Source: an uncultured delta proteobacterium (lineage in GTDB: Bacteria > Myxococcota_A > Polyangia > Polyangiales > Polyangiaceae). From it: 64,000 bases of DNA. Below the pieces are notes generated by a model, which was not told the DNA's origin, ran no database searches, and worked only from the letters and a program-made list of their open reading frames with translations. The DNA lies in contig CAWKKR010000004.1 of NCBI GenBank assembly GCA_963850305.1, positions 480,001-544,000 on the forward strand, in the 5' to 3' direction. Both the position numbers and the translations under genes were made by a program. The number at the start of each line of letters is the position of its first letter. Position 1 is the first letter of the stretch. Of this stretch, positions 13,993-41,105 are shown in pieces.

Positions 13993-14089
13993 CTCTGGGT
14001 CTCCTGCTCGCCTCGAGCCAGTCTGAAACGACGTGGCCTTCCCGGCCACCTCCGCGCGCGCGGCGTGGACGGGACCGCTCGGCGATCCG

Positions 14090-16672: not shown

Positions 16673-16912
16673 GTCGGTTCCTCCGTGTGCGGCAGGCAAT
16701 GCGCTCCGTGCGTGCACCACCGGTCGCCCGTTTCGTCGAGGGCCTTCGGGCGTTTGGTAGACCGCGTAGCATGTCCCGTACCAAGGCCGGTTTTCGCCGC
16801 CTGGGCGAGCGCTCGGTCCATCTTCGATGTCCGGCGAACGGAGTCGTCACGCAAAGCTCACCCTGAGCTCACCTTTGCGACACGGACATGGCAAAGTGTG
16901 GCCGCCCCGCGA

Positions 16913-19084: not shown

Positions 19085-19590
19085 CGGAGCTCCTGGTCGT
19101 GCGTCACGGCATCGCGCTCGGCCGTGAAGACGCGGCCGCCGCGGAGCTCGACGATCGGGAGCGACCGCTCACGCGCCGCGGGCGCGAACGGACGACGCTC
19201 GTCGCGGAAGCGCTGGCGAAGCGGAAGCCGCGCCTCGACGCGATCTTCACGAGCCCGCTCCGCCGCGCGCGCGAGACGGCGGAGCTCCTGGCGGACGCCT
19301 GCGGGGGGCTGAACTGCGTCGAGACGACGTCGCTCCTGCCGGACGCGGACCCGCGGGAGCTCGCGGAATTTCTCTCGGAGAGGACCGTTCCGCGAACCAT
19401 CGCGGTCGTGGGTCACGAGCCGCATCTCGGTTGCTTCGTCGGATGGAGTCTGACGGGGGAACGTCGCTCCGTGATCGAGCTAAGAAAGGCGGGCACGTGC
19501 CTGCTCCGTTTCGAGGGCGCGCCGCGCGCCGGCGAGGGACGGCTGATTTGGCTCTTGTCGCCGGCACTGATGCGCGGAAGATGCGGCTGA
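19081..19590 (+). CDS. sixA: SixA-like phosphohistidine phosphatase
   Basis: VVRHGIA, RPLTRRG, TSPLRRARETA, VVGHEP; ATGA overlap with ppk1. Confidence 0.88.
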   Translation: MTELLVVRHGIALGREDAAAAELDDRERPLTRRGRERTTLVAEALAKRKPRLDAIFTSPLRRARETAELLADACGGLNCVETTSLLPDADPRELAEFLSERTVPRTIAVVGHEPHLGCFVGWSLTGERRSVIELRKAGTCLLRFEGAPRAGEGRLIWLLSPALMRGRCG

Positions 19591-21107
19591 TGGCGAGCGC
19601 GTCGAATCCGTCGTACCCGCGCGGGCAGACCCTGGCCGCGATCGATCTCGGATCGAACAGCTTCCACATGGTGGTCGCAAGGGTGATGGACGGACAGCTC
19701 GTCATCGTCGACCGGATGAAGGAAATGGTGCAGCTTCGTGCCGGGCTCGACGCCAGCCGGCGCCTCGACGCCGCGGCGGAGCAACGCGCGCTCGCGTGCC
19801 TGGAGCGGTTCGGACAGCGCGTGCGCTCCCTGCCGGAAGAGAGTGTGCGCGCCGTCGGAACGAACACGCTTAGGCTCGCGCGCAATGCCGACCCGTTTCT
19901 CGAGAAGGCGGAAAACGCACTCGGGCAGCCCATCGAAATCATCAGCGGCATCGAAGAAGCACGGCTCATCTACCTCGGAGTAGCGCACGGTTTCGGGCCC
20001 AGTGACGAGCGACGCCTCGTCGTCGACATCGGAGGGGGCAGCACGGAGCTCGTCGTCGGCGAGCGATTCTCGCCGCTCGATCTGGAGAGCCTGTACATGG
20101 GCTGCGTCGCCATGATGCAGCTCCATTTCCCGGATGGAAGACTCTCCGCAAGGCGATTCCGCCGTGCGGAAGTCGCGGCCCTTCAGGAACTGGAGCGTGT
20201 CGAGAAGCGGTTCCGGCGCATCGGCTGGAAGATGGCCATCGGGGCGTCCGGCACGATCCGCGCCGTCAGCGGCGTCATCCACGAAAGCACACCGGGCAAG
20301 CCGGGCATCACGCGAGAGGCGCTGAAGAAGCTCCGCGCCACCGTTCTCGCGGCCGAACACGTCGACCAGCTCTCGCTGCCTGGGTTGACTCCGTCACGCG
20401 CGGCGGTGTTCCCGGGCGGCCTCGCGATTCTCTCGGCCATCTTCGAGAGCTTGCAGATCGACGAGATGCAGGTGAGTCAGAGCGCGCTCCGCGAGGGGCT
20501 GCTGAACGACCTCGTCGGGCGCTTCTTCCATCGCGACGTGCGCACCATGACCGTGACCGCCCTGATGGATCGGTATCACGTCGATCGCGAGCAAGCCGAG
20601 CGAGTCGAGAAGACCCTGCTCAAGCTACTCCCGCAGGTGGAGACCGCCTGGGATCTCCCCTCCCCGCGGTCGCTCGAGCTCTGCTCGTGGGCGGCGCGCC
20701 TCCACGAGATCGGCCTCGATATCGCGCACAGCCACTATCACAAGCACGGCGCCTACGTGCTCGAGAACGCGGACATGCCGGGGTTCTCGCTCCAGGAACA
20801 GAGGCTCTTGTCGGCGCTGGTCCGCGCGCACCGTCGCAAGTTCCCGGTGAGCACCTTCAGGAGCCTTCCCGCCAAGGCGCGCGTCGTGGAACACCTCGCC
20901 GTCCTTCTCCGGCTCTCCGTGCTCCTGCACCGGAGCCGCGCCGACGTCCCGGACCTCTCGCTCCTACCCGGAAGGCGGAGGCTCGAGCTCAAGTTTCCCG
21001 CCGGCTGGCTCGAGGCGCAGCCGCTCACGCAGGCGGATCTCCAGGAAGAGGCGGAGTTCCTGCGCGAGGCGGATTTCGAGCTGCGCGTGCCGTCCGCGTC
21101 GGCGTAA
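19590..21107 (+). CDS. ppx: Exopolyphosphatase Ppx/GppA
   Basis: AAIDLGSNSFHM, ISGIEEARLIY, VDIGGGSTE, ALREGLL, HD-type C-terminal domain (LHEIG, YHKHGAY). Confidence 0.95.
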   Translation: MASASNPSYPRGQTLAAIDLGSNSFHMVVARVMDGQLVIVDRMKEMVQLRAGLDASRRLDAAAEQRALACLERFGQRVRSLPEESVRAVGTNTLRLARNADPFLEKAENALGQPIEIISGIEEARLIYLGVAHGFGPSDERRLVVDIGGGSTELVVGERFSPLDLESLYMGCVAMMQLHFPDGRLSARRFRRAEVAALQELERVEKRFRRIGWKMAIGASGTIRAVSGVIHESTPGKPGITREALKKLRATVLAAEHVDQLSLPGLTPSRAAVFPGGLAILSAIFESLQIDEMQVSQSALREGLLNDLVGRFFHRDVRTMTVTALMDRYHVDREQAERVEKTLLKLLPQVETAWDLPSPRSLELCSWAARLHEIGLDIAHSHYHKHGAYVLENADMPGFSLQEQRLLSALVRAHRRKFPVSTFRSLPAKARVVEHLAVLLRLSVLLHRSRADVPDLSLLPGRRRLELKFPAGWLEAQPLTQADLQEEAEFLREADFELRVPSASA

Positions 21108-21128
21108 CGCATCGAGTAGACTCGGAGC

Positions 21129-22109
<981 letters not shown>

Positions 22110-22111
22110 GC

Positions 22112-22741
22112 ATGCCGTCGAGGTCACCGCCCCTTTCGTGGCTCCAGCCGTCCGTCCTAGTGGGCTCGCTCGTTCCCTTCGCGGCGCTCGCGTATCGCGC
22201 GGCGGCGGGCCGCCTCGGCGCGAACCCCGTCGCGACCGCGCTCAATCAACTCGGCCTGCTCGCGCTGATCTTCCTCTGCGCGTGCCTCTCGTGTACCCCG
22301 CTCAAGACGCTCTTCGGCCTTGCTTTTCCGATGCGCCTGCGAAAGACGCTCGGTCTCCTCTGCTTCTTCACGGCACTCGCGCACGTCACGGTGTATGTGG
22401 CCGTCGATCAAGGCTTCGCGTTCGGCGTCATCGTCCGGGACGTCACCAAGCGCCCGTTCATCGCAGTCGGTTTCGCCGCGCTGACGCTCCTCGTCCCGCT
22501 CGCCCTCACCTCGACGAAGGGCTCCGTGAAGCGCCTCGGGTTCGCGCGCTGGAAGCTCCTGCACCGGCTCGTCTATGTGACGGCGGTGCTCGCGATCATT
22601 CACTTCGTGATGCGGGTGAAGGCGGACACTCGCGAGCCCTATCTGTACGCGGCGTTCCTCGGCGTGCTCTTCGCCGTCCGGGTCCATGACGGCGCGCGGC
22701 CCGGCAAGGCCCGCGCGAAGCGCAGGGCCGTGCCAGGTTGA
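22112..22741 (+). CDS. msrQ: Heme-binding membrane subunit MsrQ
   Basis: LGANPV, RKTLGL, KRPFI, PLALTS, WKLLHRLVY; directly follows msrP. Confidence 0.92.
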   Translation: MPSRSPPLSWLQPSVLVGSLVPFAALAYRAAAGRLGANPVATALNQLGLLALIFLCACLSCTPLKTLFGLAFPMRLRKTLGLLCFFTALAHVTVYVAVDQGFAFGVIVRDVTKRPFIAVGFAALTLLVPLALTSTKGSVKRLGFARWKLLHRLVYVTAVLAIIHFVMRVKADTREPYLYAAFLGVLFAVRVHDGARPGKARAKRRAVPG

Positions 22742-22751
22742 GCGATTCGCG

Positions 22752-23778
22752 TCAGTTCGTGCCCGCGTCGGCGTTGCCCTTGGGCTTCGGCGGCGGCGGG
22801 GTACAGCGAAGGAACGGCTCGGTCTTGCCCGAGTCCGCCTTCGGCGCGGGACCGACGGGGAGCTGTGCACCGAGTGGCAACAGGCACTCGCCGTCCGTGA
22901 ACGTGCCGCAGACGCCGTAGCCGCTGCAGCAGCCCCAGATCGGGCCGACCAGGCCGAGGTAACTCGGGCACTCCCCGTTGACCGACGGATCATCGGGCGG
23001 CCCCGTGACGGTCTGAACCGGCGGTCCCGCGTCCACGACAGGCGGCGGCGGCGGGAAGCAGAACCCGATCCCGAGCGAATCTAGACCGCACGCGCCGTTC
23101 GGCAAGCAGCACGCCTTGATGTCGCCGTCGCCCTTGCATTTCTTCAGATCGCAGGTCTTCGGCGGAGGCGCAAAACACACCCCGATGCCGAGCGTGTCGA
23201 AACCGCACCCCTGGCCGTTCGCCAAGCAGCAAGGCGCCGGGCCGCCGTCCGTCGATGGACAGCTCGAGAGGTCGCAGAGCGGCGTGGGCGGCGCGAAACA
23301 GAGCCCGATGCCGAGCGTGTCGACGCCGCACTTGTTGTTCAGCTGGCAGCACGCGGCCGGTCCCCCCTTGGTGGTCGGACACTTGTCCACGTCGCAGGGT
23401 GGCCCTGCGTCCACGTTCGTGGCCGGATTCGGGAAACAAAAGACGCCGTTGCCGTACGGGTCCGTGCCGCACTCGGCGGCCGGCGTGCAGCACTTGTAGC
23501 CGTTCTTGGGCGTCGGACAGTCCTTCTCGACGCACACGCGGTTCGGTGCCGAGTTCGGCGTGCAACCGAGCAGGAGCCCGGTGGGAATCCGTACCGCACG
23601 AGCCATCCGGCGCGCAACAGGCTGAACCGGTGGCGGGCGCCGGGCACAACGACGGGTTGCACACGCCGGCAGGCTGACCGCCGTCATATCGCTGAATGAT
23701 GATGCTGCCGTCGTCGCAAGCCGAAAAACATCCGGCAACCGCCGACAAGGCCAGAGCAGATAGTAAGAAACGCTTCAC
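22752..23778 (-). CDS. Cys-rich repeat lipoprotein; apparent +1 frameshift at ~23586
   Basis: Signal peptide MKRFLLSALALSAVAGC in the 23778 frame; repeats C..CP....CC.....CG.D.LGIG.CF continue in the 23738 frame. Confidence 0.75.
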
Positions 23779-24020
23779 GCTTGAATCTCCAGGTTCGAGA
23801 GCCGCACGCTCGAACGCGGAGAATATCGGGTTCGCGCGCCGCGCGCGAAATTCTCGTCTTTCACCCGGCCACGATAGATGCGAGCTCTACTTACATGTAG
23901 GCATCGGCAAGAGGGGGCTGCCCCGCGCAGCTCGAGTGCACAAGGGCCTCCAAAGACGCTCGGCCACACGGCCGCACCGTCGGGAGGCGTCACGGCGGCG
24001 CGCCGCACACCGAGCCGAGC

Positions 24021-25310
24021 TCAGTCCGGCGTGTTCGAGCAATAGCTCGGGAACCCCGACGGGATCCCGTTCGCATACGGCTCGGGCGACACCTTGTACG
24101 GATGCGCCGTGAAGAACTGGAGCGAGACAGGCGCCACGCCGGGGTCGACCTCGTGGCCACCCGGGTGGTGGCACATCATCGTGTAGTAACCCTGCGGCTG
24201 GTAATTCGAATAGTACGTGTGGCTGTTCTGGTTGAAGTCCAGGACCACGACGTCCGAGCCCGAGTCGCCGTACGTCAGGATCGAGGCCACCTTGTTGGAC
24301 GGATCCTGATCCGTCGCGCCGAAAGGTTGACCGCCGGAATACGATATGACGCTCGCCATGTAGTTCGAGCGCGCCAGGGAGACGTACATCGTATGGAGCG
24401 CGCCGGCGCTCCACCCAAGCGCGTGAATGTGCCGGGTGTCGATGTTGGCTTGCTGGATAGCGCACGCGACGACCGTGTCCTGGATCGGCAGGTCTTCCAC
24501 GAACCACACGCCGTCGTCGGTCGTCGTGCAGCCGGTACACGTCGTCTCGGTGAACGCCGCGACGACGCCGCCCGCGCTCGTGACGGCCGCAATGTTCGCG
24601 GCGCCGAACCCTGACTCGACCTCGGCCGGGTTCGAGAAGGTCGCGTGGTAGTAGAGGATGAGCGGGCCGCCGGGCGCCGGTTTGCTCTTCGCCGACGGGT
24701 CCATGTAGATGACGACGGGCATGGTCCTGCCGCTCGCCCCCGGGATCTGAACGGTGCCGCCGGAGGTTGCGTTCGTCGGGAACGTCGGACAGCTCGTCGC
24801 GGTCGGGAGTGCGGTCGGCGTCGGCCCTCCCGTCGATGTTCCGCCGGAGCCCGTGGCGTCACCGCCGGACCCCGTCGAAGTTCCGCCGGAACCCGTGCCG
24901 TCGCCGCCGGAACCCGTGTCGTATCCACCCGCGCCCGTGCCATCACCGCCGGAACCCGTCGACGGCGCGGCACCGGTACCCACCGCGCCGCCATTGGGAG
25001 TCGTACTGAACCCGCCCTGGCCGTTCGAACCGCCGGCACCCGGCGCCGACGAGGAACATCCGCTGACGTCGAGCTGGCAGTTGATACACTGAGCCGTACC
25101 GTAGGGGGCCTGGTTCAGGGTGGCCTCGGCACACGACGGCGGCGTCGGGCCGTCGCACTGTTCCCCCTGCTCCACGACCAGATCGCCACAGTGGGCAGCC
25201 TGGCTACCGCTGCCCGACCCGGAAGAACATCCGAGAAGCCCAGCGACTGCAACCAGCGGCACGTACATCCGCGGATCTAGTGTTGATAGGGCCGTCCATC
25301 GTCGAAGCAT
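24021..25310 (-). CDS. Lipoprotein esterase (PHB-depolymerase/CE1-like alpha/beta hydrolase) with Cys repeat and Gly/Thr linker
   Basis: Lipobox LLGC; CGDLVVEQGEQCDG; PLILYYHA; GWSAG nucleophile elbow; HPGGH. Confidence 0.75.
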   Translation of the reverse strand: MLRRWTALSTLDPRMYVPLVAVAGLLGCSSGSGSGSQAAHCGDLVVEQGEQCDGPTPPSCAEATLNQAPYGTAQCINCQLDVSGCSSSAPGAGGSNGQGGFSTTPNGGAVGTGAAPSTGSGGDGTGAGGYDTGSGGDGTGSGGTSTGSGGDATGSGGTSTGGPTPTALPTATSCPTFPTNATSGGTVQIPGASGRTMPVVIYMDPSAKSKPAPGGPLILYYHATFSNPAEVESGFGAANIAAVTSAGGVVAAFTETTCTGCTTTDDGVWFVEDLPIQDTVVACAIQQANIDTRHIHALGWSAGALHTMYVSLARSNYMASVISYSGGQPFGATDQDPSNKVASILTYGDSGSDVVVLDFNQNSHTYYSNYQPQGYYTMMCHHPGGHEVDPGVAPVSLQFFTAHPYKVSPEPYANGIPSGFPSYCSNTPD

Positions 25311-25517: not shown

Positions 25518-27395
25518 TCAGTCCTCGAAGTTCGCGTGAACGAAGTCCGAGACGATCTGCGCGACGCGACGCTGGGCCGAGATCTCGGTGAACGTGTGAT
25601 CGGCCCCCTCGATGATCTGCATCTGGAAATTGGCCCGACCGCGCATGCGCCGCGCGCCCGGGCCGAGATAGGAAGCGAGCGTGTCCAGGGCCGAATCATC
25701 AGCGCTGTAGACGAGCAGGGACTTCGTGCCCCTATCGGAGGTGCGCCAGAAATCTCGCTCCACCGGGTTCAGGGGCTTGTGCGGTGAGACGAGCGCGTTG
25801 AGAGCGGCCTTGGTCGTCGCGAAGGCCACGCGCGAGCCGTGCGCGAGCAAGTAACGCGCAATGCCGGCTGCGGCCACTCGACCTCTCAAGACACGCATCC
25901 ACGTATCTTGGTTGAATAGAGACCGACCATAGACGTGGCTCGCCTTGAAACGATCTGCTGCGCGAGACTCGAGCGTGTCCCCCTCCTTCCACTCGAACGC
26001 GGACAGATTCATGAGCACCTGGCCCACGACCCGCGCATCCGTCGCCGTCGAATGGAAGGCGAGATAGGCACCCGAACAGATCCCGACCAGGACGAATCGC
26101 GCGATACCGTAGTCTCGCGCCAGGAGTGACATCGCCGATTGCACGTCCGCGACGCAGGCTATCGAGTAGATCTGGTTCTCCTGCTTGCCCGGCGCGGCGT
26201 AGCTCTCCCCGAGACCGCTCACGTCGATGCGCATCGACGTGATACCACGCGCAGCGAAATCCCGGGCCATCGTCACGTAAAGGCGGTTCGACCCGATGTG
26301 GTGGTTCGCTCCGACGTTGATGAAGAGGACCGCCTGATCGCGCTTCGCGCCCGGCGTCTCCGGTGTCGAGACGATACCGAACAACCGATCGTCGGGACCG
26401 AATCGCTCGGGTTGCTCCGATACCCGGACGCCTTCGCGGGTCGTGGCAACGAGCGGTGGCGCCGGCGGCGGGATCGTCGGTTCGCGCTGCCCGCGCCTCG
26501 ACGAGTTGCCGTAGGCCGCACGAGCCCAGCTCTCCACCGTGGAGATGGCCTGAGCCGGCAGAGTCGCGAACTCGACGTCACGCATCATGGCCGCATAGCC
26601 AGGCGTCGCGATGAACTCCACCTCGTGCCCGCAGCTCTCGTAATACTCGGCGAGGCGCTCTTCACCCGAAACGTCGTCGCGCGGGACGATGAGTACGCGG
26701 AGAATCCGAGCGACTCTCGTTTTCAGAAGATCGAGCCCTTTCAGGTCTTCGATCATCGGGGATGTGACGAGGTAACCCGCCACCTGGAGTTCGGGGCCAC
26801 CGTTGTCCTTGAGCAACTGGAAGGCGCGCAGCTCCCGCGCATAGCTGCGTCCCGAGAGGGCGGCCCCGAAGAACATCAAGCTCGAGATGTCATCGCGTTC
26901 GGCAACCACGTGGCCCGCGAGGAGCGCACCGAGTCGGGTCCCGAACAGCCCGATGCTGGAAACGCCGCCGCGGCGTTTCAGCTCGTCGATGGCCGCATGG
27001 ATGTCGTCCATCATGGCGCGGACGCGCTGCTCGGAGTCCGGATAGCCCGCGGAGTCGCCGGTACCGCGGTAATCGAAGCGGAGTACGTGAAAACCAGCCG
27101 CCGCGAGCCGTTCGGCGAGGACCCGGTACGGGCGGTACGTGCACATCGCCTCGTAGCCGAACGGGTTGCAGAGGACCACGCCGACACCGCGGGGCTCCGC
27201 TGCGGCGGGGAGATGGTGAAAGCCAAAGATTCGAACGGGGTCCGTCCCGAACGAAATCGGTTGCCCCGAAGCGCGCGCTCCAGTCGTGGCGCGAGATGTG
27301 GCCTCGACCTGAAGCCCTACGCCACTCACATCACCCTCGTCGCTCGCCCATGCTCCAGCTGGCGTGAACACTCGCATATCAACGTCGCGCTGCAA
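25518..27395 (-). CDS. Tandem two-domain alpha/beta hydrolase (exosortase-associated hydrolase 2 + hydrolase 1-like fusion)
   Basis: Domain 1: VLRFDYRGTGDS and GTRLGA; domain 2: RIDVSGLGES, GICSGA, GADHTF; exact start uncertain. Confidence 0.8.
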   Translation of the reverse strand: MQRDVDMRVFTPAGAWASDEGDVSGVGLQVEATSRATTGARASGQPISFGTDPVRIFGFHHLPAAAEPRGVGVVLCNPFGYEAMCTYRPYRVLAERLAAAGFHVLRFDYRGTGDSAGYPDSEQRVRAMMDDIHAAIDELKRRGGVSSIGLFGTRLGALLAGHVVAERDDISSLMFFGAALSGRSYARELRAFQLLKDNGGPELQVAGYLVTSPMIEDLKGLDLLKTRVARILRVLIVPRDDVSGEERLAEYYESCGHEVEFIATPGYAAMMRDVEFATLPAQAISTVESWARAAYGNSSRRGQREPTIPPPAPPLVATTREGVRVSEQPERFGPDDRLFGIVSTPETPGAKRDQAVLFINVGANHHIGSNRLYVTMARDFAARGITSMRIDVSGLGESYAAPGKQENQIYSIACVADVQSAMSLLARDYGIARFVLVGICSGAYLAFHSTATDARVVGQVLMNLSAFEWKEGDTLESRAADRFKASHVYGRSLFNQDTWMRVLRGRVAAAGIARYLLAHGSRVAFATTKAALNALVSPHKPLNPVERDFWRTSDRGTKSLLVYSADDSALDTLASYLGPGARRMRGRANFQMQIIEGADHTFTEISAQRRVAQIVSDFVHANFED

Positions 27396-27642
27396 GCCGT
27401 ATCACGAAAGGAGCTGCGCCAGGCGCGCACGTCCTCCGAGCGACGCTCGCCCGGAGTGATGGCGGCATCCCGGCCCGCTGTTTCAGCTTCGCCCATGCTC
27501 GCCCATGCTCGGTCCCCACACCGTATCTTTTGCATAAATCTCGGGAAAGCGACCGCGCGAACCACGGTCATCACCGACTGTCCACTGCGGCCCGCCACGG
27601 CCGATTCAGCCCGGCGGGAATGCACGAAGTCGGGATGTTCCC

Positions 27643-27671
27643 TTGCGGGCACGCGAACGCAAAAATATAGT
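27643..27671 (+). promoter_or_regulatory. Sigma-70-type promoter of the acpS-ACP operon
   Basis: TTGCGG - 17 bp - TATAGT, ending 11 nt before ATG 27683. Confidence 0.6.
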
Positions 27672-27682
27672 ACGGACCACGC

Positions 27683-28075
27683 ATGGAAGCCGTCGCCGTC
27701 GGAATCGACTGGGTCGAGATCGCCGAAGTCGAGCAATCCATTTCGCGGTTCGGGGAACGCTACCTGACGCGGGTCTTCACCGAAGGCGAGCGCGCTTATG
27801 CGAGGACGAGCGATGCGCAGGGCGCGGCCCGTCTGGCTGCTCGATTCGCTGCGAAGGAGGCGGTAATCAAGGTGCTCCGCCCCGCAGACCGACCGGTACC
27901 GTGGCGCGATATCGAGGTCCTCAAAACGGCTTCGGGTGCCTGCGACATCAAGCTCACCGGTATGGCGCTCGCTCTCGCAGGCGAGGCCGGGATCGACCGA
28001 ATATCCGTGAGTCTGACTCATCACGGGAACCAGGCCGCTGCGGTCGCCGCAGCGCTCCGCAAAAAGGACCCATGA
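27683..28075 (+). CDS. acpS: Holo-[acyl-carrier-protein] synthase (AcpS-type PPTase)
   Basis: VGIDWVE, RVFTEGE, LAARFAAKEAVIK, ISVSLTH. Confidence 0.93.
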   Translation: MEAVAVGIDWVEIAEVEQSISRFGERYLTRVFTEGERAYARTSDAQGAARLAARFAAKEAVIKVLRPADRPVPWRDIEVLKTASGACDIKLTGMALALAGEAGIDRISVSLTHHGNQAAAVAAALRKKDP

Positions 28076-28314
28076 CCGAAGAGATCCGAGCGATTCTGAA
28101 GGAACACGGCAGGCTGAACGCGGACGCCACGACGCTCGCAGAGGATGGCGATCTTTACGAGGCGGGGATGACCTCCCACGCCAGCGTGAATGTCATGCTC
28201 GCGCTCGAGGCCAAATTCGACGTGGAATTCCCTGACCGGATGCTGCGACGCAGCGTATTCGAGAGCGTCGCGGCCATCCGCGGTGCGATTGAAGAACTCA
28301 CGGGGGCCCGTTGA
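28072..28314 (+). CDS. Acyl/aminoacyl carrier protein
   Basis: 80 aa; DLYEAGMTSHASVNVMLALEAKFDVEFPD with Ser at the phosphopantetheine position; ATGA overlap with acpS. Confidence 0.9.
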   Translation: MTEEIRAILKEHGRLNADATTLAEDGDLYEAGMTSHASVNVMLALEAKFDVEFPDRMLRRSVFESVAAIRGAIEELTGAR

Positions 28315-29468
28315 CGGTGCCCACACTCATCGACACCGTCGCGCGCATTGCCGCCGAGATCGCTGGACCCGCTGCGGCCGACGTGGACGACCGCGCCCGA
28401 TTTCCGGCCGAGGCGATCGATGCGCTCAGGAAGGATGGACTCCTCGCAGCGGGCATCCCGAAGGACCTCGGGGGCCAGGGCTGCTCGATCGCCGACCTTT
28501 CGCGGATGTGCACGGCCCTCGGCCAGCACTGTGCCTCTACGGCCATGGTCTTCGCGATGCACCAGATCCAGGTGGCGTGCATCGTCCGTCATGGCCTCGG
28601 GTCGTCGTACTTCAGGGCGTACCTGCAGGAAGTCGTGCAGAAGCAGCTCCTGATCGCGTCCGTGACGTCGGAGGCCGGCGTAGGGGGCGACACGAGAACG
28701 AGCGTCTGCGCGGTCGAGAAGACCGATAATCGCTTCGTGCTCAACAAGGACGCAACAACCATCTCCTACGGGGAGGCTGCAGACGATCTGCTGGTGACCT
28801 GCCGACGGTCGTCCGACGCGGCGGGCAGCGACCAGGTGCTCGTGCTGCTCCGAAAGAACGACTATCTGCTCGCCCGCAACGGCTCGTGGAACACCCTCGG
28901 CATGCGCGGCACATGCAGCCCCGGGTACAAGCTCACCTCCTCGGGGCACGTCGAACAGATCCTCCCGGGGTCGTTCGCCGACTCGTCGAGTCAGACGATG
29001 GTGCCCTTCTCGCACGTGCTCTGGTCGGCGTGCTGGCTCGGTATCGCGTCGGACGCGGCGGCGCGTGCCAGCTCCTACGTGCGTGCCGAGGCGCGACGGA
29101 AGCCAGGCACGGTTCCGGCCGGCGCCGTTCGCCTGGCGGAACTGTCGACCGTGCTCCAGACGATGCGCACGCACGTGAAGGACGTCGCGGAGGAATGCGC
29201 GACTCTCTTCGCTTCCCCGGAGGGAAACGACGCCGTGTCGTCCATCGGCTTCGCGCTGAAGATGAACCAGCTCAAGACGTCGTCGTCCGAGACCGTGGTG
29301 GATCTCGTGCACCGCGCGCTCTTGATCTGCGGCATCATGGGCTACAAGAACGACGGCCCGTTCAGCCTCGGACGTCATCTCCGGGATTCGCACTCCGCGG
29401 CATTGATGATCAACAACGATCGTATCTACGCGAAGAGCGCGTCGCTGCTCCTCGTCCACAAGGACTGA
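28311..29468 (+). CDS. Acyl-CoA dehydrogenase-fold flavoprotein (probably acts on aminoacyl-carrier protein)
   Basis: RFPAEAIDAL, PKDLGGQG, CASTAMVFAMH, TSEAGVG, WNTLGMRGT, ICGIMGY, RHLRD. Confidence 0.88.
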   Translation: MTVPTLIDTVARIAAEIAGPAAADVDDRARFPAEAIDALRKDGLLAAGIPKDLGGQGCSIADLSRMCTALGQHCASTAMVFAMHQIQVACIVRHGLGSSYFRAYLQEVVQKQLLIASVTSEAGVGGDTRTSVCAVEKTDNRFVLNKDATTISYGEAADDLLVTCRRSSDAAGSDQVLVLLRKNDYLLARNGSWNTLGMRGTCSPGYKLTSSGHVEQILPGSFADSSSQTMVPFSHVLWSACWLGIASDAAARASSYVRAEARRKPGTVPAGAVRLAELSTVLQTMRTHVKDVAEECATLFASPEGNDAVSSIGFALKMNQLKTSSSETVVDLVHRALLICGIMGYKNDGPFSLGRHLRDSHSAALMINNDRIYAKSASLLLVHKD

Positions 29469-29471
29469 ACG

Positions 29472-30389
29472 ATGGTCAAAGAGCCGACGGCGGTGGAGAA
29501 GGCCTTTTACGAAGACCTGGTGAGCGCACGGCTCGTCATCCCGACGGGCGTGCCGGGCGTGTTCGGGCGGGGCGCCGTCTTCGAGGACGTGCTCGAGCGG
29601 TTCAATCGACTGATCACCAAGGTGGCGGAGAAAGACGGCGCGGAGCGAATGCTCTTCCCGCCCACTCTGAGCCGCCGCGTGTTCGAGAAGAGCGAGTTCT
29701 TGAATTCATTTCCGCAGCTCGCCGGCTCGGTGTTCAGCTTCGACGGGACCGACGCTCAGCACCGGGAACTCACGGCGCGCATTCACGACCAGAAGCCGTG
29801 GGCGGATCTTCAAGTGATGACGGACGTCGTCCTGAGCCCCGCCGCCTGCTACCCGGTGTACCCGACGATGGAGGGCACGCTGCCAGAAGAAGGCCGCCTC
29901 GTGGACATGGAGGAGTGGGTCTTCCGGCACGAGCCGTCGTACGAGCCCACCCGGATGCAGTGCTTCCGCGTGCGCGAGTTCGTCCGCGTGGGCACGCCGG
30001 ACATGGTCGTCGGGTGGCGCGACATGTGGCTGAAGCGCGGACACGAACTGCTGCTGTCGCTCGGACTACCCGCGCGGCCGGAGGTCGCGTCCGATCCGTT
30101 CTTCGGGCGGGGCGGACGCATGCTCGCGGCGAGTCAGAAGGAAATGCAGCTCAAGTTCGAGGTCGTCATTCCGGTTTGCTCCGAAGAGAAGCCGACGGCC
30201 GTGTGCTCCTTCAACTATCACCAGGATCACTTCGGCAAGATCTTCGGCATCCGGACGGCGTCGGGGGAAACGGCACAGACTGCGTGTCTCGGCTTCGGGA
30301 TGGAGCGCGTCTGCATGGCGCTCTTCAAGACGCACGGTGTCGATACCGCACAGTGGCCCACCACGGCGAAGAAGCTGCTCTGGCCGTGA
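29472..30389 (+). CDS. Amino acid:[carrier protein] ligase (truncated atypical seryl-tRNA synthetase homolog)
   Basis: Class II aaRS catalytic core only: FPQLAG, PAACYPVY, motif 2 FRHEPS/REFVR, SFNYHQDHFG, motif 3 TACLGFGMER; no tRNA-binding domain; adjacent to ACP. Confidence 0.9.
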   Translation: MVKEPTAVEKAFYEDLVSARLVIPTGVPGVFGRGAVFEDVLERFNRLITKVAEKDGAERMLFPPTLSRRVFEKSEFLNSFPQLAGSVFSFDGTDAQHRELTARIHDQKPWADLQVMTDVVLSPAACYPVYPTMEGTLPEEGRLVDMEEWVFRHEPSYEPTRMQCFRVREFVRVGTPDMVVGWRDMWLKRGHELLLSLGLPARPEVASDPFFGRGGRMLAASQKEMQLKFEVVIPVCSEEKPTAVCSFNYHQDHFGKIFGIRTASGETAQTACLGFGMERVCMALFKTHGVDTAQWPTTAKKLLWP

Positions 30390-31369
30390 ACGTCGCGGCG
30401 ATCAGAGCCATCGATCCGGCGAGATACACGCCGCACACCCTTCACCGGTGCGAGCGGGCGTTCCCCGAGTCCAATTGCTACATCGACGTCTGGCTGGAGG
30501 TGCTCCACGCGCTCGAACTCGAGCCGCTCGCATGTGCGCCATTCACCCTGGCCGCGGATTTCGAGGGCGATCAGTGGACGTTCTTCAAGCCGCCCCACGG
30601 AGAGCTCGCCCGGCTCTACGGGATCGAGGTCCATGAGCTCACGGTTTGGCGTCCGCTCGCCGACCACGCCGTGGAGCAGCTCGGCCAGGGAAAGATCGTT
30701 CTCACGGAAGCGGACTCGTTCTTTTTGCCGGACACGGCCGGGACGGACTACCGGCGAAACCACGTGAAGACGACGATCGCTCTCCAGGAGATCGACGTCG
30801 CCGCGCGAAGACTCGGATACTTTCACAACGCGGGCTACCATGGGCTGGAAGGCGCGGATTTCGCCGACCTCTTCCGGCTGGATGCGCCCCCGGATCCGAC
30901 GTTCTTGCCGCTCTTCGCGGAGTTCGCGCGGCTCCGGCGCGTGAAGCGCCTGCCCGCGGCAGAGCTCGTTGCGCTCTCGCTCGAGCTCCTCGGCGAACAC
31001 CTCCGTCGCCGGCCCGGTACGAATCCGGTCGCTCGGTTCGCGGCGCGGCTACCCGCCGATCTCGAGTGGCTCCAGGCGGAGGGACTTCCGACGTATCACG
31101 TCTATGCGTTTGCCTCGCTCCGGCAACTGGGAGCGGCGTTCGAGCTCGGCGCGGCGTATCTTCGCTGGCTCGAGGCGAACGATACGCCGGCGCTCGATGG
31201 AGCCGCCAGAGCGTGTGACGTGATCACATCCGGTGCGAAAGCCTTGATCCTGAAGGGTGCCCGCGCCGTGAACGCGAAGCGCGCCGCCGATTTCAGCGAG
31301 CTATTGTCCCAGATGGAACGCGCGTGGGACGAGCTGATGGGAGTCCTGGTTCCGCGCTTCGGCGGTTGA
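30386..31369 (+). CDS. DUF1839-like protein (putative Cys-dependent acyltransferase)
   Basis: ESNCYIDVW, DFEGDQWTFFKP, EADSFFLPDTAGTDYRRNHVKTTI, YFHNAGY, FASLRQLGA; GTGA overlap with the ligase. Confidence 0.8.
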   Translation: MNVAAIRAIDPARYTPHTLHRCERAFPESNCYIDVWLEVLHALELEPLACAPFTLAADFEGDQWTFFKPPHGELARLYGIEVHELTVWRPLADHAVEQLGQGKIVLTEADSFFLPDTAGTDYRRNHVKTTIALQEIDVAARRLGYFHNAGYHGLEGADFADLFRLDAPPDPTFLPLFAEFARLRRVKRLPAAELVALSLELLGEHLRRRPGTNPVARFAARLPADLEWLQAEGLPTYHVYAFASLRQLGAAFELGAAYLRWLEANDTPALDGAARACDVITSGAKALILKGARAVNAKRAADFSELLSQMERAWDELMGVLVPRFGG

Positions 31370-31418
31370 CGCCGAAATCTCGGCGAACACCAGCGTTTCC
31401 GAGAATAATGCGGGCCCG

Positions 31419-33965
31419 ATGCACGAGTTCGCACTTTCCGGCGATGGTCACGCGCTGACGGAGGGTTGGGAAGCATGCCTCACGCCTCCCGGCGCCGCCG
31501 CGGACCTCGGTGCGCTCGCAGGCGAGCGATTCTTCCCAGCGCAAGTCCCGGGAACGATCGCGTCGGCCCTCCGAGCGGCGCGCGCCTGGTCTCTCGAAGC
31601 GCCGAGGGACTTCGACGCGGAGGACGTCTTCTATCGCTGTCGATTCGCGCGACCTCACGCGCCGCCCGGTTCGAAATTCAGGCTCTGCTTCGATTGCCTC
31701 GCCACGCTCGCCGACGTCTTCCTGAACGGGGAGCCGCTGCTGTCCGCCGATAACCAGTTCGTGCGCCACGCGGCGGACGTCACGGCAGCGCTCCGCGACG
31801 ACAACGAACTCATCATCCGATTTCGCGCGCTCGCGCCCGAGCTGAAACAGAAGAAACTCCGCCCGCGATTCCGGACGAAGCTCGTAGCCGAACAGCAGCT
31901 CCGGTTCATCCGCACGACGCTGCTCGGGCGCATTCCGAGCTGGAGTCCGCCGGTCGCACCCGTGGGCCCGCTTCGCGCCATCCGGCTCGAGGTCGAAGGT
32001 CGCGCATTCATCGCCGCTCGCGCTCTGCGGACCCGCATCGACGACGGAGCGGGCGTGGTCGAGGCACGGCTCGAGCTCTCGCTCGTCGGCCAGGCACGGG
32101 TGAAGTCGGCGCGCCTCGTCGTGGGCGATCGAGAATTGTCGCTCTCCGTCGATACGCGGTTCGGTACGGCTGTACTATCGGGCAAGCTTCGCCGGGAGAA
32201 CGCGCCGCTCTGGTGGCCACATACGCACGGAGCGCAACCGCTGTTCACGACTGCGCTCGTCGTGGACTTCGACGACGGCGCCACGGTGCGTCGCGAACTC
32301 GGCCACGTTGGGTTCCGGGATCTCTCGCTCGACACTTCGGACGGCGGCTTCTCGCTCTCGGTGAACGGAACGTCCGTCTTCTGTCGCGGCGCGTGCTGGA
32401 CGCCGCTGGACATCGTCACGCTCGCGACGAATCCGGACGAATGCCGGCGTGCGCTGCGCCTCGCACGCGACGCGGGCATGAACATGATCCGCGTAGGCGG
32501 TACCATGATCTACGAAGCCGACGTCTTCTACGACCTGTGTGACGAGCTCGGACTGCTCGTTTGGCAAGATTTCATGTTCGCGAACATGGACTACCCGGCA
32601 ACCGACGACACGTTCATCGCGAACGTCCGTCGCGAAGCGCTCGAGATCCTCGGACGGCTCCAGCATCGCCCGAGCACGGCCGCCTTTTGCGGCAACAGCG
32701 AGGTCGAGCAACAGGCCGCGATGCTCGGCCTCCCGCGAGACGTCTGGTCGAACGAACTGTTCGCTCGCATCTTGCCGGAGCTCGTTCGCGACTCGTGTCC
32801 GGCGGTGCCTTACTTACCCTCGACACCGAGCGGCGGGGCCTTGCCGTTCCAGGTGAACGCGGGCGTCTCGCATTATTACGGCGTCGGCGCCTACGAGCGC
32901 CCCTTCGACGACGCGCGCCGGAGTCGCGTTCGCTTCACGGCGGAGTGTCTCGCGTTCGCCAACGTGCCGGAAGCATCGACGCTCGACCGGCTCGCGCCCG
33001 ATGGCATCCCGCCCGTCCATGACCCGCGCTGGAAAGCGCGGGTGCCGCGCGACCGAGGCCCCGGCTGGGATTTCGACGACGTGCGCGATCATTACATGGC
33101 GCTCCTCTTCGGCGAAGCATCACGAGGCGTGCGCTATGGCGATCCGGAGCGTTACCTCGAGCTCGCGCGAGTGACCACTGGCGAGGCCATGGAGCGCGTC
33201 TTCTCCGAGTGGCGTCGGCCCGCATCGGTCACGCGGGGCGCGCTCGTCTGGTTTTATCGGGATCTGTGGCCCGGCGCTGGCTGGGGCGTCGTGGATTCGA
33301 TGGGGCGTCCGAAGGCCGCGTACTTCTACCTGCGGCGAGTACTCGCCTCACGTGTCATCGTCCTCTCCGACGAGGGGCTCGATGGCCTCTTTGCGCACAT
33401 CGTGAACGAGCGCGACGCCCCGTTCGATGCGGAGGTTCGAATGAGCCTGTATCGCCACGGTGAAACGCTCGTCACCGAGGGCACGTCGCGCCGAACGATC
33501 CCGTCGCGGAGCGGGTCGAGCTTCGGTCCGTCCGACTTCTTCGAAACGTTCGTCGACACGACGTACGCTTATCGATTCGGGCCTCCCGGTCATGATTTGG
33601 TCGCGGCGACTTTGTCGGACACGGCCACCGGGGAACGACTCGGTACGGCCTTTTACTGCCCCCTCGGGTTCGCAAAGGAACAGGAACCCGACGTCGGCCT
33701 CGACGCGTTCGCCGAACCCGCGGGCGCAACGTCGTTTTTCGTCGAGGTTTCGACGAAGCGCTTCGCGCAGTCAGTCTCGCTCGATGTTCGCGGCGGCGTC
33801 CCCGAGGACGACTATTTTCACCTCGCACCGGGCGACCGTCATCGGGTCCGCGTCGAAGTGACGTCACCCTCGGCGAAGCTTCAGGGCAGTGCGAAGGCGT
33901 TGAACGCGCACCGCGTCGTGAAGATCCGTCAAGGCGCCGGTCACGGCGGCTCCCACTCGAGTTGA
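31419..33965 (+). CDS. Glycoside hydrolase family 2 (beta-mannosidase-like), no signal peptide
   Basis: LWWPHTHG, VFCRGACW, MNMIRVGG, FYDLCDELGLLVWQDFMFA, CGNSE (acid/base), FTAEC (nucleophile region), WGVVD. Confidence 0.9.
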   Translation: MHEFALSGDGHALTEGWEACLTPPGAAADLGALAGERFFPAQVPGTIASALRAARAWSLEAPRDFDAEDVFYRCRFARPHAPPGSKFRLCFDCLATLADVFLNGEPLLSADNQFVRHAADVTAALRDDNELIIRFRALAPELKQKKLRPRFRTKLVAEQQLRFIRTTLLGRIPSWSPPVAPVGPLRAIRLEVEGRAFIAARALRTRIDDGAGVVEARLELSLVGQARVKSARLVVGDRELSLSVDTRFGTAVLSGKLRRENAPLWWPHTHGAQPLFTTALVVDFDDGATVRRELGHVGFRDLSLDTSDGGFSLSVNGTSVFCRGACWTPLDIVTLATNPDECRRALRLARDAGMNMIRVGGTMIYEADVFYDLCDELGLLVWQDFMFANMDYPATDDTFIANVRREALEILGRLQHRPSTAAFCGNSEVEQQAAMLGLPRDVWSNELFARILPELVRDSCPAVPYLPSTPSGGALPFQVNAGVSHYYGVGAYERPFDDARRSRVRFTAECLAFANVPEASTLDRLAPDGIPPVHDPRWKARVPRDRGPGWDFDDVRDHYMALLFGEASRGVRYGDPERYLELARVTTGEAMERVFSEWRRPASVTRGALVWFYRDLWPGAGWGVVDSMGRPKAAYFYLRRVLASRVIVLSDEGLDGLFAHIVNERDAPFDAEVRMSLYRHGETLVTEGTSRRTIPSRSGSSFGPSDFFETFVDTTYAYRFGPPGHDLVAATLSDTATGERLGTAFYCPLGFAKEQEPDVGLDAFAEPAGATSFFVEVSTKRFAQSVSLDVRGGVPEDDYFHLAPGDRHRVRVEVTSPSAKLQGSAKALNAHRVVKIRQGAGHGGSHSS

Positions 33966-34086
33966 GCGGACGCCGTTCGGCCCCCAATGGGTGGGGGCCG
34001 AAAAGGGCCAGCAATCTGCTCGAACTCCGGGTCGCCGCCACGGTTTCCAAAGATCAGCTTGAATTTCGCTGTAACCTGGAGGTTGC

Positions 34087-34785
34087 TCAGCACCGCGTCG
34101 TGATCGTCACGAGGAACCGCTTCAGCGCCCGGAGCGCGACGAGCGGGATCTCGTGTCCGCCATCGAAGGGGACCCACGTGACGGCCAGGCCGCCCCTGAC
34201 GAGATCGTCTCGCAGGCGCTCCGCAGCGTGAAAGGACAGATCGGGGTCCGCGCGCCCGTGCGCGATGAATGCCGGCAAGCCGCGGCGTGTCTCGTATCGG
34301 CTTGCCCAGACGTCCTTGCGAATCCGGGCACCCGCGAGCTGCACCACGCCGCCAAGCGCGCGCTCCGAACTGAGCGCGAGATCGCAGCTCAGCATGGCGC
34401 CCTGCGAGAATCCGCCGACGATCACGCACGGCGGTCGGTAGGTCTCCGTGAGCGCATCGAGCACACCCTCGAGCCTCTTCCGCGCCGCGGGCAACCCCGG
34501 CGGATCGATGTCCGAGAGGTCCCGCGGCTCGCCACGCTCCATCGCCGCTGCCCGGCCCTCCTCGTCGATCGACCACCAGGCGCGGCCTCCGCGCGGACCC
34601 CGATGGGCAGCGAGCGGCCCTTCGGGAAACGCAAACAGCAATGGCAGGCCGAACGACGCCGCAAACGGTGACAGGTCGCGGGCAAACCCGTCGTAGCCAT
34701 GCAAAAGCACGACCAGGGGCGTCTCGCGGGGCGGCGCCCCGTCATTCAACGTAACCCGAAGCCCCGCAATCGAAACGTCGCGCAT
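34087..34785 (-). CDS. Phospholipase/carboxylesterase family alpha/beta hydrolase
   Basis: VVLLHGY, GGFSQGAM, HGRADP, FDGGHEIP. Confidence 0.9.
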   Translation of the reverse strand: MRDVSIAGLRVTLNDGAPPRETPLVVLLHGYDGFARDLSPFAASFGLPLLFAFPEGPLAAHRGPRGGRAWWSIDEEGRAAAMERGEPRDLSDIDPPGLPAARKRLEGVLDALTETYRPPCVIVGGFSQGAMLSCDLALSSERALGGVVQLAGARIRKDVWASRYETRRGLPAFIAHGRADPDLSFHAAERLRDDLVRGGLAVTWVPFDGGHEIPLVALRALKRFLVTITTRC

Positions 34786-39746: not shown

Positions 39747-41105
39747 TCAGGGCGTCCCTGCGTCCGGCATGCCAGGGATCACGGCCTTGCACGTGTTCGC
39801 GATGCACTTCGGCATGCCCGGGAACGCGCAGGGCAAGGCCAGCGTGTGGCACCCGGCGTCCACGAATGGGACGCAGAGCGTTTGCTCGATGTCCGTCAGT
39901 TCCACGGCGAGATCGGCGAGGCCGGACTTCGAGATCAGCGTGCCGCACCCGCCCTCGCACGACACGAGCGATTGGATCGCACAGTCCGAGTCCTGCGTGC
40001 ACGAACGGCCGGGGCTCGCCTCGTATCCGCCGACGGCCTGCTCGATCTGCGTCGTGCGATCGTCGCAGGTCGGCGGCGTCGTGCCGCCGCCCTGGACGTT
40101 GATCGGTGGGATCTCGCAAGTCCCACCGACGCACGTGGGTACGCCTTCCGCCGGGCACCCGGAGAGACCCGGACCAACGCAACCTGCCTGGAAGAAGTCC
40201 CCGCAATATTGCTGCGCAATTCCCGAGAGCTGCGCGGCGATGGACGCCGACCCGGACGCCGCGACGGCAACCTGGGTGCAGCTATCGCCGTAGCACTCAT
40301 TCCCGAGCGTCATCGCGGTGCAATCGGCGTCGGCCTTGCAGGCTCGATCCGCGCCGGCAAATACCGCCGCAACCTCGGGGCTCATCTCCGCGGTTCGGTC
40401 CTCGCACGTCACGACGCCACCGTCCGCGTGCGACACGAGGACCGGCGCCTTGCAGAAGCCGCCCGTACAAACGGAGTTCGTCCCGAGCGATGCGCAATCG
40501 GAATCGGTCGTGCACACGATGGCGCAACCTTCTCCTTGAAACGTCACCTGACTGTTCACGCACGCGGACGTCATGCTGTATTCGGTCGGGCAGGTCGCGA
40601 GCGCAGAGAACCTGGTGCAGTCGGTCGTCGCGGTGCACGGCGCCGTGCAAAGGCCGCAAAAACACCGGAGCCCACTTCCGCAGTCCGCGTCGCTCAGGCA
40701 CACGGATGACCAGGCGCCGTCATGCGACCCGCCGTCGGCCGGCGGAGTCGATGTCGTGTTCTGGCATCGCGCGCCGGAACAGGTGAGGGCCGCCCCCGCG
40801 ATGGCGCAGTCCGCGTCTTTCGAACACGCGAGCGCGCACGAGCGGCTCGTGGCGGCACACGACACGCTGGTCGACACCGGAGCCGCGCAGCTTGCGGCGC
40901 TCGAAAGCGCGCTGCAATCCGACGCGCTCGCGCACGGCTTCGTGCAGGAGCCGCAGATGCACTGAAAGCCATTCGTGCAATCGGAGTCCGCCACGCACGT
41001 CGTGAGCCAGTTCGAGTTGCTTCCGGTTCGATCCGTCGCCCCGCCGCACGCGCCGGCGAGGGTTCCCCCCAATAATCCCAGGAACACGAGCTTAGCGATC
41101 TTCAC
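39747..41105 (-). CDS. Cys-rich repeat lipoprotein
   Basis: Lipobox AGAC; repeated CxxDxDC modules; GTGA overlap with the upstream gene and GAGGAGG SD. Confidence 0.85.
   Translation of the reverse strand: MKIAKLVFLGLLGGTLAGACGGATDRTGSNSNWLTTCVADSDCTNGFQCICGSCTKPCASASDCSALSSAASCAAPVSTSVSCAATSRSCALACSKDADCAIAGAALTCSGARCQNTTSTPPADGGSHDGAWSSVCLSDADCGSGLRCFCGLCTAPCTATTDCTRFSALATCPTEYSMTSACVNSQVTFQGEGCAIVCTTDSDCASLGTNSVCTGGFCKAPVLVSHADGGVVTCEDRTAEMSPEVAAVFAGADRACKADADCTAMTLGNECYGDSCTQVAVAASGSASIAAQLSGIAQQYCGDFFQAGCVGPGLSGCPAEGVPTCVGGTCEIPPINVQGGGTTPPTCDDRTTQIEQAVGGYEASPGRSCTQDSDCAIQSLVSCEGGCGTLISKSGLADLAVELTDIEQTLCVPFVDAGCHTLALPCAFPGMPKCIANTCKAVIPGMPDAGTP

Follow-up and report, generated by a model that had tools for sequence, protein, structure and literature searches.

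An amino-acid-loaded carrier-protein cassette in a Polyangiaceae genome: a widespread gene set with a possible role in the decoration of biofilm polysaccharides

What does a bacterium make with a carrier protein, a tRNA-synthetase-like enzyme that would load it and a glycosidase encoded in the same operon? This question is raised by a seven-gene set at positions 25,518 to 33,965 of a 64,000-nucleotide stretch of DNA (hereafter the window) from an uncultured delta proteobacterium of the Polyangiaceae (GenBank assembly GCA_963850305.1, contig CAWKKR010000004.1, positions 480,001 to 544,000). The original prediction, made from the letters of the window, held that an amino acid is loaded onto the carrier, oxidised there and passed to a sugar, and that the glycosidase trims or proof-reads the glycan. 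The set is an intact, tightly packed member of a known family. The answer towards which we lean, with reserve, is a stand-alone carrier line: alanine would be held as Ala-S-ACP on the acyl carrier protein (ACP), oxidised at N or C-alpha and passed by a DUF1839 protein to a small sugar, the GH2 glycosidase would act on the same intermediate, and a tandem hydrolase would carry the unit to a lipid-linked Wzx/Wzy repeat before flipping; among these steps, loading is the one shown, in homologs.

How is the set laid out? The tandem alpha/beta-hydrolase-fold protein (25518–27395, minus strand; a hydrolase-2-like and hydrolase-1-like fusion resembling BepE/Bcam1334, with two alpha/beta-hydrolase stretches) is read away from six plus-strand genes: acpS, for an AcpS-type phosphopantetheinyl transferase (27683–28075; PF01648 E 1e-16, TIGR00516 at its cut-off), the dedicated ACP (28072–28314), a flavoprotein of acyl-CoA dehydrogenase (ACAD) fold (28311–29468; Acyl-CoA_dh domain), an amino acid:[carrier protein] ligase (29472–30389), DUF1839 (30386–31369; PF08893, 368 bits) and a GH2 of the beta-mannosidase branch (31419–33965; GH2 domains). 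Four-base overlaps (ATGA, TTGA or GTGA) join acpS to ACP, ACP to ACAD and ligase to DUF1839, with a gap of 3 bases between ACAD and ligase and of 49 bases between DUF1839 and GH2; that is to say, both the seven open reading frames (ORFs) and the tight coupling described at first stand as they were given. Equally, no non-ribosomal peptide synthetase, polyketide synthase (PKS), condensation domain or polysaccharide exporter was found among the 10 + 37 window proteins scanned, as had been claimed. A promoter and terminator scan of the region gave nothing above shuffles; an 11-bp perfect hairpin at 33976–34002 (no strand), terminator-like and absent from the scan list, was read from the sequence between GH2 and a convergent esterase gene that had been overlooked at first (34087–34785, minus strand).

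Is this arrangement more than a chance neighbourhood? Two collections of loci were compared. The best-hit set consists of the best 80 of at least 599 matches in species genomes, whose genes were called and then clustered; two of the 80, in which the DUF1839 ORF was not called, were dropped, so that best-hit counts use 78 loci, and the 39 of them with at least 18 kb of flank form a full-flank subset, in which neighbours were counted up to 10 kb from DUF1839. The sampled loci (n = 29) come from 401 genomes of the window's own phylum and 401 of the phylum of genome G401; they omit G327 (short contig, own-phylum sample) and G401 (second sample), and G767 contributes two loci. The two collections may overlap in genomes, and related loci are not independent. 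DUF1839 occurs in 15 of the 401 own-phylum genomes, in 16 of the 401 genomes of the other phylum and in 0 of 14 control genomes. In the full-flank subset, ligase, ACAD, ACP and GH2 are each present at 37 loci, the hydrolase at 32, the esterase at 23 and AT3 acyltransferases at 13; in the sampled loci the counts are 28 (GH2), 27 (ligase), 26 (ACP), 26 (ACAD), 21 (hydrolase) and 0 (esterase). Since the same gene set recurs throughout the 78 best-hit and 29 sampled loci, its core is beyond chance: ACP, ACAD-fold protein, ligase, DUF1839 and GH2 form a widespread five-gene cassette, and the hydrolase is a more general module. The company of GH2 and hydrolase with the core, which the original prediction had itself named as a place where it might fail, is repeated in other genomes.

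By what would the line be started? The ligase (305 aa) scores 417.6 bits against PRK07080 (cut-off 357) and matches Bradyrhizobium Bll0957 in the PDB at E 3e-80, which bears out the identity first proposed, and it covers only positions 230–503 of a 518-position seryl-tRNA synthetase (SerRS) model; judged by these matches, it is the catalytic core of a type-2 SerRS without the tRNA-binding domain. Its gene is single-copy in the host genome. C126, E169 and G274 are kept in 78/78 homologues, and the conserved C126, E169 and C272 align with the metal site of Bll0957, where we take them to be zinc ligands. The position of Bll0957 Ala281 is occupied by Gly in 103 of 105 ligases, the other two being unreadable there (Gly274 in the window), an exchange which, we assume, widens the pocket from Gly to Ala/Ser. 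It is because of Gly274 that alanine is proposed as the loaded amino acid, and under that assumed rule the ligase is likely of the Ala type. The ACP of the same operon matches PRK07081 at 108.9 bits (cut-off 72), and its Ser35, within G-M-T-S-H-A-S, is found in 69/69 homologues. AcpS is an accessory that is not annotated in the cassettes of loci L098, L099 and L100. At locus L002 (6335–7876), an amino-acid adenylation (DltA-like) enzyme replaces the ligase and the rest of the cassette is kept, so the loading module appears replaceable. Aminoacyl loading of the carrier has been shown for Bll0957 and Atu2573, as reviewed in PMC9437257, and the same 2022 review describes the role of these ligases and of the aminoacyl-carrier protein as unknown.

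What would happen to the amino acid on the carrier? The AlphaFold model of the flavoprotein (pLDDT 92.9) matches the ACAD fold with Z of about 41 and root-mean-square deviations of 2.5–2.9 over 357–375 residues. In sequence alignment the canonical catalytic Glu is absent at both of its possible sites: the C-terminal site is Ile/Val367 in 73/73 homologues, and the helix-G site is Ser234 in 71 of the 73, next to an invariant His235. In the comparison with monooxygenases, TdsC comes first by Foldseek, and 5z8t and DnmZ stand in the top five by profile, tied with dehydrogenases; in addition, the loop R-D-x-x-S-A-x-L-M resembles R-D-V-R-A-G-G-F-M of the N-oxygenase DnmZ. N-oxygenation of prolyl-ACP has been reported for ChmG, which is likewise an ACAD homolog that lacks this Glu (PMC10849742). 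The flavoprotein is predicted to be an oxidase or oxygenase of the aminoacyl-ACP. A simple alpha,beta-desaturation is less probable: should this oxidase serve Gly-loading and Ala-loading clusters alike, desaturation cannot be the common reaction, glycine having no beta-carbon. A flavin reductase was considered as an obligate partner and set aside, such a gene lying near only 10 of 78 best-hit and 0 of 29 sampled loci.

Which enzyme would take the acyl group from the carrier? In DUF1839, C31, D116 and H147 are invariant in 81/81 sequences, with T or S at position 130. Its nearest ESM Atlas clusters are BtrH_N (0.95; 206 of 256 features), and a PDB sequence search with the DUF1839 profile gave 0 matches. 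PMC10318531 describes DUF1839 as papain-like and BtrH_N as an ACP:aminoglycoside acyltransferase family. DUF1839 is therefore predicted to be a papain-like, BtrH-related Cys enzyme acting as an ACP-dependent acyltransferase. Longer DUF1839 forms (17 matches) were considered as fusions; the three that were read (P0121, P0123 and P0128) look like frameshift read-throughs.

The second candidate for transfer is the tandem hydrolase, whose TIGR03100 and TIGR03101 scores both lie under the cut-off (125.5 bits against 168.45, and 92.7 against 202.75). Its N domain reads G-T-R-L-G, with Arg at the nucleophile elbow in 44 of 46 sequences, and its C domain reads G-I-C-S-G, with Cys in 46/46, Asp in 46/46 and His in 44/46; both Cys enzymes that had been named at first as possible transferases keep the residues expected of them (C31 and H147 in DUF1839, the Cys of G-x-C-S-G here). 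No transmembrane stretch was found in the hydrolase, and its likely start is the ATG at 27377 or a later one. It is predicted to be a carrier-to-glycan acyltransferase. Among the own-phylum genomes, 14 of the 15 with DUF1839 and 18 of the 386 without it carry the hydrolase, the latter mostly as split pairs (the genome-wide count is a floor, the first look in that search having been stricter), and it is on account of these 18 that it is regarded as a more general module. At locus L100 of Rhizobium sp. NLR16a (19856–23167), a Wzx-type flippase and, behind it, the hydrolase form one fused protein, as confirmed by Pfam. A hydrolase ORF of equal length (1094 aa), with the genes in the same order, is found in three more genomes (G654, G471 and G768), its coordinates being L120:4412–7693, L122:4414–7695 and L123:12459–15740; all four ORFs are flanked by two GT4 genes. 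Among six longer hydrolase matches, P0139 and P0138 (doubled) look intact and P0140 looks like an artefact; in P0139, the tandem hydrolase is joined to a FemAB-like GNAT (PF13480). The host genome has one more tandem hydrolase, an orphan with the motifs G-I-R-L-G and G-L-C-S-G (651 bits), at G000:C8:1662613–1664334 on the minus strand, about 40 kb from the host Wzx/Wzy locus described below.

Why should a glycosidase belong to such a line? The best PDB matches of the GH2 are beta-mannosidases (TM 0.84, five-domain GH2 fold), and E428 and E509, kept in 61/61 sequences, correspond in alignment to the glutamates of WCGNNE and SEY in 6byc. The -1 subsite is altered throughout the family: WDW becomes PSW or PGW, WGG becomes VGG, NNE becomes NSE (Ser427 in place of Asn, 61/61) and WQxND becomes WFYRD or WFLRD. 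These are presumably the mannose-binding motifs of the -1 site, and with all of them changed a plain beta-mannoside is an unlikely substrate. No hydrophobic N-terminal stretch or signal peptide was found in 61/61, and the enzyme is predicted to be cytoplasmic. Moreover, this GH2 subfamily occurs in the same 15 of 401 own-phylum genomes as DUF1839, with at least 789 bits or, in one piece at a contig end, 393 bits; outside those genomes (n = 386) there are only two matches, and these are lower (361 and 310 bits). Because it tracks DUF1839 one-to-one, the GH2 looks like a step of the pathway, not a trimmer of polymer. The backbone of the Burkholderia Bep polysaccharide is, we presume, all alpha-linked. 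With the -1 site remodelled family-wide and the gene following DUF1839 in place of polymer type, the trimming or proof-reading role first given to the GH2 is less supported.

The esterase carries a G-F-S-Q-G motif (PF02230, E 4e-15), and its Ser-Asp-His triad is invariant in 29/29. It is found near 30 of the 78 best-hit cassettes and near 0 of the 29 sampled ones, by which its standing as a core gene was ruled out; it is a lineage-limited accessory, predicted to be an editing thioesterase.

To what would the product be attached? The neighbour families that recur around the cassette are priming glycosyltransferases, Wza, Wzz/Wzc, Wzx, Wzy, WecG and UDP-glucose dehydrogenase (UGD), and further GT2/GT4 glycosyltransferases, deacetylases, AT3, a methyltransferase and GNATs. 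With priming glycosyltransferase, Wza, Wzc/Wzz, Wzx, Wzy, WecG, UGD and ManC as strict exopolysaccharide (EPS) markers, at least one was found within 10 kb at 26 of 78 best-hit, 19 of 39 full-flank and 9 of 29 sampled loci, against 2.8–4.6% of random windows of the host genome, and AT3 acyltransferases stand inside the operon in 18 of the 78 best-hit loci. The Burkholderia core is enclosed by two regulators, one of Crp/Fnr and one of sigma-54 type, and stands among genes for Wza, Wzz, Wzy, Wzx, ManC and a priming glycosyltransferase; by gene order, compared with PMC5552954, this is the stretch from berA to berB in bep, a biofilm-polysaccharide locus in which Bcam1334 encodes a hydrolase resembling TIGR03100 (PMC3584217). 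For the homologous bec cluster, a transposon biofilm screen picked out 15 of the 18 genes, the ACAD gene becG among them (PMC5507470); the identities of becF to becK were assigned here by gene order, and polar effects in the bec mutants are possible. The linkage to polysaccharide genes that had been foreseen is upheld by the sampled loci and by the bep context. In the host genome itself the cassette is an orphan, lying away from EPS genes. A region at G000:C8 ~1.70–1.73 Mb brings together WecG, GT2, Wzy and two unnamed families, all of them neighbours of the cassette in other Polyangiaceae loci; at ~1,700,000–1,730,000 (L101, L102) it holds a Wzx/Wzy locus with UGD, WecG, GT2/GT4, two AT3/OpgC acyltransferases and GH44, and is the likely host partner of the cassette. 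The same locus also carries a single-module PKS of 2149 aa (KS-AT-KR-DH-ACP-TE domains).

Taken together, the proposed line would run as follows. AcpS, going by its family, would turn the carrier into holo-ACP, and the ligase would form Ala-AMP and then Ala-S-ACP. The ACAD-fold enzyme might then N-hydroxylate the tethered amino acid, in the manner of ChmG, or deaminate it to a 2-oxoacyl (pyruvoyl) group; DUF1839 would take the acyl group on Cys31 and join it, like BtrH, to the amine or hydroxyl of a small sugar, and the GH2 would cleave or transfer the beta-glycosidic bond of that shared intermediate, the order of DUF1839 and GH2 being the weakest step of the scheme. In the end, the tandem Cys-hydrolase would move the unit onto the undecaprenyl-linked repeat at the cytoplasmic face, with AT3 or GNAT helpers where these are present, and the esterase would clear stalled ACP. 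That the last transfer is placed before flipping is due to the Wzx fusion. A number of observations weigh against this scheme. The main one is that for the polymer of B. cenocepacia H111 (Gal:Glc:Man 2:1:1) the available portion of PMC7084887 reports no substituent; extraction was in 0.3 M NaOH, by which an ester would be hidden, an amide or ketal not. The becG mutant (0.84, smooth colonies) is milder than six other bec mutants (0.43–0.66), and the mutant of becF, the ACP gene by synteny, did not score in the screen (PMC5507470). The window holds no strict EPS gene, and 20 of the 29 sampled loci lack one within 10 kb; the EPS enrichment is overstated to an unknown degree, since the EPS profiles were seeded from best-hit loci and L098/L100, kin are not independent and the background comes from one genome. 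The Wzx–hydrolase fusion was met in 1 of 60 matched plasmid records, i.e., in one lineage. As for the chemistry, dehydrogenases and flavin monooxygenases are equally near to the flavoprotein by fold, a flavin-reductase-like gene is as scarce as mentioned above and absent from the window, and no paper supporting the Ala281/Gly specificity rule was found in open-licence PMC and bioRxiv text.

What else might be made? One possibility, to which we give limited credence, is a free small molecule, for instance an amino sugar with an N-acyl group or a derivative of an amino acid that has been glycosylated, serving as signal, osmolyte or matrix additive, whose proximity to EPS genes would reflect biofilm co-regulation. 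The sampled loci without EPS genes and the H111 polymer would suit it, as would the small aminoglycosides that BtrH-type enzymes acylate and a core that is identical in hosts with very different EPS gene sets; but the recurring neighbour families include no conserved exporter or receptor, and the Wzx–hydrolase fusion and the AT3 enzymes within the operon argue against it. Unlikely, in our judgement, is the direct transfer of the original prediction and of Iyer et al., in which DUF1839 or the hydrolase transfers the oxidised aminoacyl moiety to a sugar of the cell surface and the GH2 serves to trim, proof-read or recycle the glycan: the one-to-one pairing of GH2 with DUF1839, the single active-site pattern despite varying EPS neighbours and a predicted cytoplasmic place away from the polymer tell against a trimmer, although the enzyme keeps both catalytic Glu and the beta-mannosidase fold and the prediction is already published (PMC2922099). 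The Ser for Asn before the acid/base could admit 2-N-acyl mannosamine, and WecG is near 8 of 78 loci, but the Burkholderia loci L097 and L098 bear no WecG label.

A speculative and rather improbable variant makes the GH2-fold enzyme a synthase, which would glycosylate the carrier-made N-hydroxy- or imino-alanyl group or exchange at its N,O-acetal, so that the cassette assembles a glyco-amino-acid unit for installation on the biofilm polysaccharides of myxobacteria, Burkholderia and rhizobia; the decoration would be base-labile, and the alkaline extraction of such polymers would explain why it has been overlooked. Very improbable is an acyl acceptor other than a polysaccharide, be it a lipid (lipid A or an amino-lipid) or a surface protein: PMC10318531 does list ‘fatty acid/phospholipid protein processing’, and papain-like Cys enzymes often act on proteins, but the recurring neighbours, which are polysaccharide genes, include no conserved gene for lipid A, fatty acids or a target protein. 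The stand-alone carrier line ending on a lipid-linked repeat remains the reading we prefer.

How much of this had been said before? In a note in proof, Iyer et al. (2010; PMC2922099) predicted that Atu2574 attaches an amino acid to the amine of a sugar at the cell surface, the redox enzyme altering that amino acid by monooxygenation; PMC10318531 shows these five genes in the same order and proposes that they process cell-wall glycans. A sugar-acylating role of the cassette was thus already predicted in 2010 and 2023, and the idea of the original prediction, being the same proposal, is not new. The product of the cassette, or a treatment of the bep/bec carrier genes as one pathway, was not found in the open-licence literature; subscription journals and supplements may hold more. 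If the carrier line is true, biofilm polysaccharides receive an undescribed decoration, derived from an amino acid, from a cassette present in ~4% of the genomes sampled in two phyla, and functions would be gained for DUF1839, the hydrolase-1/2 pair, the Glu-less ACAD clade and the altered-pocket GH2 subfamily. The value lies in the family and not in the window copy, the host being a poor test system.

Several loci vary the cassette. At L113 it lacks the ligase within the stretch examined. A RimJ/RimL-type GNAT of 170–240 aa directly follows DUF1839 in 13 myxobacterial loci (L012, L014, L017, L018, L022, L030, L037, L048, L050, L052, L060, L064 and L072). At L056 (11014–18522) and L061 a second carrier-protein set adjoins it, with a phosphopantetheinyl transferase, GT2, a deacetylase, WecG, an adenylation enzyme, a small ACP-like gene and an AurF-like N-oxygenase. 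The genes efp, epmA and that of a lysine aminomutase come immediately upstream of the cassette at L100 (9540–12880), so that two aminoacyl-tRNA-synthetase paralogs lie side by side; judged by gene size and order, the same trio is present at L119, L121, L124, L126 and L129. Elsewhere in the window, positions 13111–21107 hold the polyphosphate genes ppk2, a P-type ATPase, ppk1, a histidine phosphatase and ppx, followed by msrPQ-like genes (21129–22741), and a weak AurF-like diiron protein, under its cut-off, adjoins a glutathione S-transferase at 390–2323. Cys-rich repeat genes, typical of myxobacteria and probably secreted or lipoprotein-like, occupy 22752–25310, 39747–41105 and 51212–55057; one has a polyhydroxybutyrate-depolymerase-like esterase domain and one has DUF4215 repeats with PA14.

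With which known systems does the cassette agree? The nearest are the amino acid:[carrier protein] ligase clusters of Bll0957 (PDB 3mey/4h2w) and Atu2571–Atu2575, which share with it the ligase, PRK07081 carrier, ACAD, DUF1839 and GH2, arranged as PMC10318531 gives them; unlike them, the window has its own acpS and esterase and lies apart from EPS genes, and its ligase has Gly where Bll0957 has Ala at position 281. The Burkholderia bep (Bcam1330–1349) and bec loci have the same five-gene core between two regulators, and bep, like the window, includes a TIGR03100-like hydrolase, with AT3 and GNAT genes in addition; there, a full Wzx/Wzy cluster surrounds the cassette, which is not the case in the window. 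The exosortase A-associated hydrolases 1 and 2 (TIGR03100/TIGR03101) match both hydrolase domains and occur as split pairs in DUF1839-free genomes, whereas the domains in the window are fused and under both equivalog cut-offs; no biochemical study of them was found in the open-licence literature, which gave one table mention only. Chalkophomycin biosynthesis (ChmG/ChmH/ChmI/ChmJ, N-hydroxypyrrole) is likened by one feature only, a Glu-less ACAD homolog acting on an aminoacyl-ACP; unlike the window, it uses proline, an ANL adenylase and a second ACAD, and its product is a small molecule.

Two routes are left by which the logic of the cassette may be measured. The name ‘Dlt-like’, given to it at first, holds as an analogy, tRNA-independent loading on a dedicated carrier for the decoration of a glycopolymer being common to both, and fails as membership: the window ACP reaches 22.5 bits to DltC (cut-off 68), an oxidation step is present, and no ANL-type DltA, MBOAT DltB or DltD was found among the cassette and window proteins scanned. 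The side-chain route of butirosin (BtrI carrier, BtrJ ligase, BtrO oxygenase, BtrH transferase) is closer, with its stand-alone carrier, ATP-dependent loading, flavin oxidation and papain-like transfer to a sugar. It differs in that BtrJ is of ATP-grasp fold and the window ligase is class II aminoacyl-tRNA-synthetase-like, in that there are no aminoglycoside genes, and in that GH2 is obligatory in the cassette. BtrO is placed among the flavin/F420-dependent monooxygenases (PMC2922099), and the oxidase of the window is ACAD-fold instead. In summary, the cassette would work more like the butirosin side-chain route than like Dlt, and it is a member of neither.

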